This document shows positions 36,619 to 37,101 of a stretch of 64,000 bases of DNA, one piece after another. The notes beneath the pieces were generated by a model. That model was given only the letters and a program-made list of their open reading frames with translations. It did not search any database and was not told the origin of the DNA. This stretch comes from Escherichia phage 92CQ. Position numbers and translations under genes: made by a program. Location: sequence record PV682554.1. The stretch is one strand, 5' to 3'. The first letter of the stretch is position 1; every line of letters starts with the position of its first letter.

Positions 36619-36796
36619 AAAAGATTCCGGTTGTTTTGAATAATTAAGAACGGTAGATTGGTGAAATGGTAGCCACAACAGTTTGCTAAACTGTCGTCGG
36701 AAACGGCGTGTAGGTTCAAGTCCTACATCTACCGCCAAGTTATCTTTAATGTAGCTTGTACTCTTACTTTAGCAGAGTAAATCTTCGGCAAGTGGC
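36619..36796 (+). repeat. direct repeat copy 1 (178 bp; contains tRNA-Ser GCT)
   Basis: Identical by hand alignment to 36924..37101; period 305 bp. Confidence 0.8.
36652..36737 (+). tRNA. tRNA-Ser (anticodon GCT), type II, copy 1
   Basis: Acceptor GGTAGAT/ATCTACC, anticodon hairpin ACAGT-tTGCTaa-ACTGT, variable arm CGTCGGAAACGGCGT, T-arm GTAGG-TTCAAGT-CCTAC, discriminator G, CCA encoded. Confidence 0.75.
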
Positions 36797-36923
36797 TGAA
36801 TTATAAAACTATTGGACAGGTTGTTACCGGAGTTAAGATTGTAGATAATAAAGTTGTTTATGAGTATTCTAATCTTCAACAATCTGAAGATGGTAAAAAT
36901 ATTCGTATGGTAAAAGCAGAACA

Positions 36924-37101
36924 AAAAGATTCCGGTTGTTTTGAATAATTAAGAACGGTAGATTGGTGAAATGGTAGCCACAACAGTTTGCTAAACTGTC
37001 GTCGGAAACGGCGTGTAGGTTCAAGTCCTACATCTACCGCCAAGTTATCTTTAATGTAGCTTGTACTCTTACTTTAGCAGAGTAAATCTTCGGCAAGTGG
37101 C
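36924..37101 (+). repeat. direct repeat copy 2 (178 bp; contains tRNA-Ser GCT)
   Basis: Identical to 36619..36796. Confidence 0.8.
36957..37042 (+). tRNA. tRNA-Ser (anticodon GCT), type II, copy 2
   Basis: Sequence-identical duplicate of the gene at 36652. Confidence 0.75.

Follow-up and report, generated by a model that had tools for sequence, protein, structure and literature searches.

A Repeated tRNA-Ser(GCT) Cassette and a Start-less gp111 Gene in the Early tRNA Cluster of a phi92-like Escherichia Phage

Introduction

The SegB-dependent tandem amplification of a 718-bp unit, which consists of tRNA-Tyr and a truncated segB, has been described for phage T6; Septu, a tRNA-cleaving defence, selects for this amplification, which is unstable when that pressure is absent, and it was left open whether HNH endonucleases do likewise (Chihara et al., Nat Commun 2026, PMC13096335). 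Endonuclease-driven recombination in a tRNA cluster has its classic precedent in the homing of T4 SegB (PMC2330249). Here, we analyse a stretch of 64,000 nucleotides from Escherichia phage 92CQ (sequence record PV682554.1), the whole of which is called the window below. Its early tRNA cluster holds a perfect 178-nt direct repeat, R, with a complete tRNA-Ser(GCT) in each copy, and a small gene, gp111, which has lost its start codon and runs from between the copies into the second one. In templated insertion, or template-switch duplication, a nearby segment is copied to a site with little or no microhomology and with a small deletion at the target. We propose that the locus is probably a real, recent and lineage-private segmental duplication that arose by illegitimate recombination in the early tRNA operon of a phi92-like phage (Justusliebigvirus).

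The locus shares with the T6 array a short unit repeated head-to-tail in a phage tRNA cluster (718 bp in T6, 305 bp in the window), a unit that comprises a full tRNA gene and a truncated neighbouring open reading frame (ORF), a cluster associated with homing endonucleases, and repeats that are expected to be unstable. However, T6 has multi-copy arrays, microhomology at the junctions and the endonuclease gene in the unit, whereas the window has 1.58 units, 0–1 nt of microhomology, no endonuclease gene in 64 kb and a first unit without the ORF. A full tRNA, as the anti-defence gene, is thus present in the repeat unit, but the junctions (1 nt and 0 nt) are not the microhomology junctions of homologous recombination, and a homing endonuclease gene in or near the unit is seen in relatives only. 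As the microhomology, the in-unit endonuclease and the multi-copy array are lacking, the window is not filed here as an accordion of the T6 type. With the free-standing homing endonucleases (T4 SegB and the HNH endonucleases of the relatives), the locus has in common the tRNA cluster setting and a dense mosaic of single-nucleotide polymorphisms (SNPs), as expected around homing sites; it differs in its endonuclease-free tRNA-Lys and in a spacer ORF that is no endonuclease. The templated insertions in break-induced or recombination-dependent replication resemble it in the nearby copy, the 0–1 nt of microhomology, the small deletion and one breakpoint at a hairpin, although for this phage group we infer the mechanism.

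Results

The Repeat and Its tRNA Genes

A repeat search of the window showed that positions 36619–36796 and 36924–37101 are 100% identical, with 305 bp from start to start and 127 bp between the copies. No other strong direct repeat reaches 40 nt in the 64-kb window; beside R, the same search found one weak 42-nt repeat family with 62–71% identity. A perfect repeat of 178 nt cannot have arisen by chance. Each copy lies on the plus strand and consists of a 33-nt leader, the 86-nt tRNA-Ser(GCT) and 59 nt of 3' flank. In copy 1, the inserted one, the leader is at 36619–36651, tRNA-Ser(GCT) no. 1 at 36652–36737 and the first 59 nt of the spacer at 36738–36796. Copy 2, at the ancestral position, has the 33-nt leader formed by the 3' end of gp111, tRNA-Ser(GCT) no. 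2 at 36957–37042 and again the first 59 nt of the spacer.

Both tRNA genes were predicted by ARAGORN as tRNA-Ser(gct), and both scored 54.2 bits with Rfam RF00005, for which the gathering score is 29. With a long variable arm, the anticodon GCT and a score above the Rfam threshold, the two copies are class II tRNA-Ser(GCU) genes, and their sequence is that of the single-copy gene of most relatives. An earlier note, made from the sequence alone, had described the locus as a perfect tandem duplication with a complete tRNA-Ser(GCT) in each copy. The perfect identity (178/178 nt) and the completeness of both tRNAs, called by ARAGORN as well as by Rfam, were confirmed.

The tandem character was not. 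Tandem Repeats Finder (TRF) did not report R in the window, which holds just 1.58 units, and for this reason we regard it as an interspersed direct repeat and not as a full tandem duplication. A simple tandem duplication has at least two full head-to-tail units and one novel junction, whereas the window has the structure R-S'-R (S' denotes the part of start-less gp111 that precedes the leader), with two novel junctions in comparison with the relatives that have gp111 (gp111+). Such a duplication of a gp111+ progenitor would have left two gp111 genes, and the window has only one. Moreover, taking one unit out of the window gives the structure of the gp111-less relatives and not that of a gp111+ progenitor. 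Two novel joins are needed, and no sampled progenitor yields the arrangement by simple tandem duplication.

The Junctions of the Inserted Copy

In phi92, PHB05 and other single-copy relatives, the order is tRNA-Ser(TGA), 18–19 nt that include AGGAG, gp111, 8 nt, tRNA-Ser(GCT), a spacer of ~127 nt and tRNA-Lys. In the window, tRNA-Ser(TGA), which is invariant among the relatives, occupies 36517–36606 on the plus strand and is followed at 36607–36618 by a spacer ending in ...AATTCAACTAGG; this spacer is of the gp111+ 'hapA1' type, and in the relatives the sequence goes on with AGCTTTATG, that is, with the Shine-Dalgarno sequence and the start of gp111. The alignment showed that where the relatives have ...CAACTAGGA, GCTTTA and TGAATTAT..., the window has ...CAACTAGGA, R and TGAATTAT.... 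The inserted R thus takes the place of the 6 nt GCTTTA and leaves the Shine-Dalgarno AGGAG without its final G and the ATG without its A.

The left novel junction, at 36618/36619, reads CAACTAGG(A)/AAAGATTCC, with 1 nt (A) of possible microhomology. The right novel junction, at 36796/36797, reads GGCAAGTGGC/TGAATTAT, with 0 nt of microhomology; no strand applies to either junction. The donor breakpoint of the right junction corresponds to 37101/37102, at the first loop base of hairpin 2 of the spacer (stem 37095–37100 with 37107–37112, loop 37101–37106).

The arrangement was sought in other sequences. Neither the left nor the right junction was found contiguous in any of the phage records that contain R (0/122), and R itself occurs at 178/178 in no phage record, the best being 177. 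Both junctions were absent from IMG/VR (exact and degenerate patterns) and from the metagenome collection, in which each was searched once. The right junction was absent from the GTDB genomes, which were searched for this junction only, and from all 39 related loci compared. None of the 18 ENA/Logan loci of close relatives, reached via exact-protein look-ups, has the duplication. Minus-strand ORFs spanning the junctions gave no match, which says little, as such ORFs are rarely called. The suggestion of the earlier note that the event is recent holds in the sense that it appears recent and lineage-specific: S' is 100% identical to intact alleles, the copies are 100% identical to each other, and no sampled relative has the arrangement.

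The Start-less gp111

The ORF in the spacer between the repeats is start-less gp111 (phrog_22441), at 36797–36948 on the plus strand. The TG of the former ATG is at 36797–36798, codons 2–50 are at 36799–36945, and the stop codon is at 36946–36948. Translation of 36781–36948 gave the open frame of 55 codons and a stop that the earlier note had quoted as lacking a start codon; indeed, there is no ATG, GTG or TTG in frame ahead of an internal Met (residue 38 of the intact gp111), and no ORF was listed there. The note had further taken this frame for the 3' end of a gene whose body was lost, and had proposed a comparison with single-copy relatives. Such relatives were found, with an intact 50-codon gp111 upstream of tRNA-Ser(GCT). 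Their gene is gp111 of phi92, 50 codons in a 153-nt ORF, MNYKTIGQVVTGVKIVDNKVVYEYSNLQQSEDGKNIRMVKAEQKDSGCFE (MNYKTIGQ...CFE). Because the whole gene has only 50 codons, its body is not gone: the window retains codons 2–50 (49/50). The last 7 codons and the stop (KDSGCFE*) are present again in the leader of copy 1, at 36620–36643; the earlier note had given this recurrence as 9 codons.

The tblastn search showed gp111 at full length in all phage records with the gene (50/50), all of them of the same genus; it is likewise present in 3 contigs of IMG/VR and 11 of ENA/Logan. Intact gp111 matched phrog_22441, a family of unknown function, with E = 9.9e-40 and with residues 1–50 on positions 1–50 of the 50-position profile. 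It thus belongs to this family, and residues 2–50 are encoded identically in the window. The nucleotide sequence of gp111 in the window is 100% identical to the intact alleles of pEC-M2929-1AR.1, EC.P2 and PD06, and S' is likewise 100% identical to pEC-M2929, EC.P2 and PD06. The 8 alleles have 9 variable sites, 4 synonymous and 5 non-synonymous, which are too few to prove coding; as weak evidence, the substitution pattern is compatible with a coding gene.

A functional gene would have a Shine-Dalgarno sequence and a start codon, and gp111 of the window has neither, as the end of the inserted copy (...AAGTGGCTG) stands in place of AGGAGCTTTATG. Judging from this, it is probably no longer translated. 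In accord with the earlier note, which saw no nuclease motif in the remnant, gp111 had no match in Pfam and none in PADLOC. The single-sequence AlphaFold model of residues 2–50 is confident and shows a three-stranded beta sheet, with a predicted local distance difference test (pLDDT) score of 84, and a Foldseek comparison of the model with PDB and BFVD gave nothing below E = 0.3, only matches at the level of chance. Neither an HNH, GIY-YIG, LAGLIDADG or similar motif nor a truncation relative to full-length homologues, which have 50 aa, was found. The spacer ORF should be annotated as a start-less gp111 pseudogene and not as an endonuclease remnant.

It should be noted that an 8-bp inverted repeat, GGAGCTTT ... 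AAAGA(C/T)TCC, brackets gp111 (PHB05 L007:~10705-10870), whereby the Shine-Dalgarno region pairs with the last codons. The pair probability in a fold of single-stranded DNA is ~0.6, and in mRNA the repeat could sequester the ribosome-binding site of gp111. The breakpoint of the deletion and of the duplication falls within the left arm of this repeat. Hairpin-bypass slippage was considered for the left junction and rejected, as the breakpoints are off the base of the GGAGCTTT/AAAGAYTCC stem and no convincing mechanism could be found.

The gp111-less Allele and the Progenitor

A natural allele without gp111, in which tRNA-Ser(TGA), 45 nt and tRNA-Ser(GCT) follow one another, is present in nine relatives, namely EC_OE_11, KKE7M, JohannJBalmer, alia and five ENA/Logan contigs. 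A gap of 3 nt separates the two tRNA-Ser genes of the outgroup phAPEC8, and gp111 and its 3' remnant are both absent there. The gp111-less allele, meanwhile, retains 24 nt of the 3' sequence of gp111, a segment that varies among these alleles. As these 24 nt are kept there and are absent in phAPEC8, we conclude that the gp111-less allele is a derived deletion. It shares with the window the spacer length of 45 nt and the joining of the post-tRNA spacer to the last 24 nt of gp111, so that the left junction of the window has the register of the deletion allele. The two differ in five flanking SNPs, and the window still has the start-less gp111 and the second cassette downstream.

The SNPs at the junctions point to a gp111+ source. 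At positions -5, -1, +3 and +10, the nine gp111-less alleles (9/9) have T, T, C and A, whereas the window has C, G, A and C, the states of gp111+ genomes. The AACTAGG spacer, S' and positions 3, 10 and 30 of R match pEC-M2929, EC.P2 and SD2, which are gp111+. The C at position 143 of R, which had been considered a tie to the gp111-less lineage, was dropped as such, since the same state occurs in the gp111+ contigs L022 and L023. The left backbone type of the window, without a 99-nt indel described below, occurs together with gp111 in contig L029. As every informative SNP state of the window near the junctions occurs in gp111+ genomes, a gp111+ progenitor is, by this comparison, sufficient for the window.

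Homing Endonucleases of the Relatives

In several gp111-less genomes, there is a gene for a 126-aa HNH endonuclease (phrog_4234, E = 5e-25), the 3' end of which overlaps a recoded tRNA-Lys. In EC_OE_11, KKE7M and JohannJBalmer, this gene lies ~150 bp downstream of the cassette. The statement of the earlier note that tRNA clusters are landing sites for homing endonucleases is thus true of this phage group. Other relatives have HNH genes at further sites in the cluster, and ALITA and SD2 are also among the phages with HNH genes. The window, in turn, gave no match below E = 0.2 in a tblastn search of its 64 kb with three HNH proteins of the relatives, and its tRNA-Lys(TTT), the right neighbour of the locus at 37169–37244 on the plus strand, is the ordinary allele without a homing endonuclease. 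The SNP pattern at 36290–37510 is a dense mosaic with apparent switch points in the invariant tRNAs.

The HNH gene was located at L004:1386-1820, L005:~10886-11320 and L013:2793-3227 (equivalent to ~37160–37244 of the window) and had no Pfam match; the tRNA-Lys that it overlaps is recoded in its 5' two-thirds. In arall and PaulScherrer, tRNA-Lys begins with the recoded 5' motif (…GCCAAG) and no endonuclease gene is present; from its sequence, this may be a resistant allele. Of the 7 gp111-less genomes with contigs extending as far as tRNA-Lys, 5 show the link between the absence of gp111 and the presence of the endonuclease.

The Structured Spacer

The spacer between tRNA-Ser(GCT) and tRNA-Lys, at 37043–37168 on the plus strand (~126 nt), folds into a 17-bp closing stem around three hairpins, with a minimum free energy of -34.3 kcal/mol and z = -4.0. 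Copy 1 has just the 5' 59 nt of this element. The structure is retained in the RNAalifold analysis of Justusliebigvirus sequences together with two sequences of the outgroup genus Phapecoctavirus, and this analysis showed 5 compensatory pairs, of which the closing stem and hairpin 2 have two each and hairpin 3 has one. The element is also seen at L020:787-913 and L021:787-908. No Rfam family matched the spacer. From its predicted fold, the spacer may give rise to a stable RNA, so far unannotated, that is transcribed together with the tRNAs, and we take it to be reminiscent of the species 1 and 2 RNAs of T4. JohannJBalmer, which lacks gp111, has a spacer 100% identical to the one that follows copy 2 in the window.

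In six loci of relatives (L003:~1290-1335, L016, L018, L019, L024 and L035), an extra hairpin-like unit of 45 nt is found ~20 nt into the spacer, after the position equivalent to 37064 of the window. This indel indicates that the spacer stretch is prone to indels, that is, a hot spot. The 45-nt unit resembles hairpin 2 of the spacer (GGATGGCTGCAACCATC versus AAGTGGCAGTAACCACTT) and, by this likeness, looks like an older internal duplication.

The tRNA Cluster Around the Locus

The region matches phi92-like E. coli myoviruses (Justusliebigvirus, Stephanstirmvirinae) at 96–98%, and the closest records over 20 kb are EC_OE_11 (98.8%) and KKE7M (98.7%). The cluster contains 16 tRNAs predicted by ARAGORN and one further predicted by Rfam. 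A promoter-like site on the plus strand, at 36472–36501 (TTGACA, an 18-nt spacer and TAGAGT, with TG before it), lies upstream of tRNA-Ser(TGA) and belongs to a repeated promoter-like family, D4. From its sequence and position, it is likely the promoter of the operon with both tRNA-Ser(GCT) copies; no terminator-like site was found between it and 38589. In the long ORFs of the window, AGT makes up 16.1 per 1000 codons and AGY 36% of the Ser codons; this usage represents the demand for tRNA-Ser(GCU) and serves as context only, not as evidence of selection for a second copy.

Several other features of the cluster were seen. The tRNA-like gene at 36372–36450 scored 40 bits with Rfam (gathering score 29) and was missed by ARAGORN; it has 4 nt in place of the D-arm, the anticodon loop CUUCUAA (UCU, Arg), a variable region of ~20 nt and its own promoter-like site at 36332–36360, and it is identical in all 5 aligned relatives. 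Between tRNA-Asn and tRNA-Thr, 37431–37505 is a hypervariable segment with a T-arm-like hairpin (GTAGGTATCAAATCCTAC) and without an Rfam match at E <= 1. Its version in the window was found in pEC-M2929-1AR.1 alone of the 5 aligned relatives, and the rest have many substitutions and an 8-nt indel. Relatives of the PHB05 type have 99 nt extra after tRNA-Leu(TAA) (36291/36292 of the window; L007:~10795-10893), ending in the T-arm-like GGTTCGATTCCATAA. This segment, which may be a tRNA remnant or an odd tRNA, is missing from the window, EC_OE_11, KKE7M and L029. At 38500–39000, near tRNA-Met and tRNA-Ile, PHB05, pEC-M2929 and EC.P2 differ from the window, EC_OE_11 and KKE7M at ~170 alignment positions in the 500-nt bin, which represents a further large indel or replacement in the tRNA cluster.

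Discussion

The progenitor of the window would have had tRNA-Ser(TGA), the Shine-Dalgarno sequence and ATG, gp111, tRNA-Ser(GCT), the structured spacer and tRNA-Lys, in this order. From it, a 178-bp cassette (33 nt, the tRNA and 59 nt up to the loop of hairpin 2) would have been copied and joined 305 bp upstream in place of GCTTTA; the two copies of R would be identical because the gp111+ progenitor copied its own cassette. As the microhomology is 1 and 0 nt, template switching or end joining would be the mechanism, and not homologous or slipped-strand exchange. This may have taken place during break repair or recombination-dependent replication and possibly began at the hairpin. Both copies of tRNA-Ser(GCU) would then be transcribed from one promoter and processed, probably with a doubled dosage. 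The 178-bp repeats would also be expected to recombine readily, with the deletion of 305 bp, to give ...CAACTAGGAAAAGATTCC..., one tRNA-Ser(GCT) and no gp111. The product of such a collapse, tRNA-Ser(TGA), 45 nt and tRNA-Ser(GCT), would have the architecture and register of the nine gp111-less relatives, and the window may therefore be an intermediate of one route to the loss of gp111. Overall, we regard the event as an ordinary product of recombination in a very variable tRNA cluster.

Several points weigh against this account. The left junction is in the exact register of the gp111-deletion allele, with the 45-nt spacer in both, and such a shared register is an unlikely coincidence for an independent event. 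It hints at a hot spot or at a co-infecting gp111-less template, neither of which is demonstrated; a hot spot for the jump, a co-infecting gp111-less template (heteroduplex loop removal keeps the SNPs of the recipient) and chance are the possible options. No exact progenitor was sampled, as the best match to S' plus R differs at 2/305 nt. Since no homologue of the HNH endonucleases of the relatives was found in the 64-kb window, nothing there identifies the source of a break, and an endonuclease-made break behind the duplication is a conjecture. The expression of both tRNAs and the silencing of gp111 are suggested by the sequence, and the assembler could have reduced a longer array to the two copies seen.

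The shared register is one ground for a cross of two alleles, an origin that we consider unlikely; in it, a gp111+ phage and one without gp111 (tRNA-Ser, 45 nt, tRNA-Ser) would have met in a mixed infection. Either a single illegitimate crossover would have fused the gp111-less genome, at the end of its R, to the gp111+ genome at the beginning of gp111, which requires one illegitimate join only, or a tandem duplication of gp111 and R would have been followed by the removal of the first gp111 as a heteroduplex loop on a gp111-less template, with the recipient SNPs kept. The latter version needs two events, and we assume its enzymology at this locus from that of T4 endonuclease VII. A cross would agree with the 20-kb backbone, which is closest to the gp111-less, endonuclease-carrying EC_OE_11 and KKE7M, and with the spacer of copy 2, which is that of gp111-less JohannJBalmer. 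The junction SNPs speak against it, as do the copies identical at 178/178, which would not be expected from two different phages; furthermore, C143 and the backbone type occur in gp111+ genomes too, so that a gp111-less parent is not required. A crossover of a sampled gp111-less allele with a gp111+ allele is specifically disfavoured by the misfit of the SNPs at -5, -1, +3, +10 and +30. That the duplication is an artefact of assembly or sequencing and is absent from the phage DNA would be suggested by its presence in a single assembly and by a 178-bp repeat that exceeds common k-mer sizes. However, assemblers tend to collapse repeats and not to invent them, and the reading frame and the SNP pattern are clean across the junctions. 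Both junction sequences are new compared with all sampled genomes and occur in no sampled genome type; they would thus have been in the reads and would not come from a mis-traversed repeat graph of gp111+ and gp111-less phages, which makes an artefact very unlikely.

An adaptive genomic accordion concerns selection and would fit either origin. In this case, a selected amplification of tRNA-Ser(GCU), against a tRNA-targeting defence or for the AGY demand, would have produced an array that was perhaps collapsed by the assembler. The escape of T6 from Septu by tRNA-Tyr amplification is the precedent, the unit has a complete tRNA with its own flanks, the usage of AGT and AGY given above would fit, and an unstable direct repeat in a finished genome suggests recency or selection. 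On the other hand, only two copies were assembled, the junctions lack the microhomology of T6, the endonuclease gene is neither in nor beside the unit, and no E. coli defence targeting tRNA-Ser(GCU) was identified here. In addition, the first unit is without gp111 and is not the product of a simple amplification from a gp111+ progenitor. We therefore find it improbable that the window represents a phage genomic accordion outside the T-even phages, that is, a break-induced and selected amplification of tRNA-Ser(GCU), perhaps in more than two copies, that is also an intermediate of gp111 loss. Were this so, an accordion with repeat-by-repeat deletion would explain the exact junction register of the natural gp111-less alleles. 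As for the earlier suggestion that a larger gene, such as one for a homing endonuclease, lost its body and left its 3' end as the spacer ORF, we consider it practically excluded. In its favour are the missing start codon of the frame and the homing endonucleases present in the tRNA cluster of the relatives, but the intact homologue has 50 codons, 49 of which are kept in the window, the phrog_22441 match spans the entire profile, and a nuclease domain, motif and fold are all absent. The single-copy relatives, with their 50-aa intact homologue that has no nuclease domain or fold, thus refute the endonuclease remnant.

A segmental duplication by illegitimate recombination within a gp111+ phage is, on balance, the probable origin of the locus. 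If it is real, it would be a small, dated case of the remodelling of a phage tRNA cluster, in which a tRNA is doubled, a small neighbouring gene is switched off, and the repeats are able to delete gp111 cleanly. Following the T6 report (PMC13096335), it is worthwhile to catalogue the tRNA duplications that occur naturally in further groups of phages. In the phi92-like phages, the window would link three types of alleles, gp111+, gp111-less, and gp111-less with an HNH endonuclease, and would represent a testable intermediate between them.

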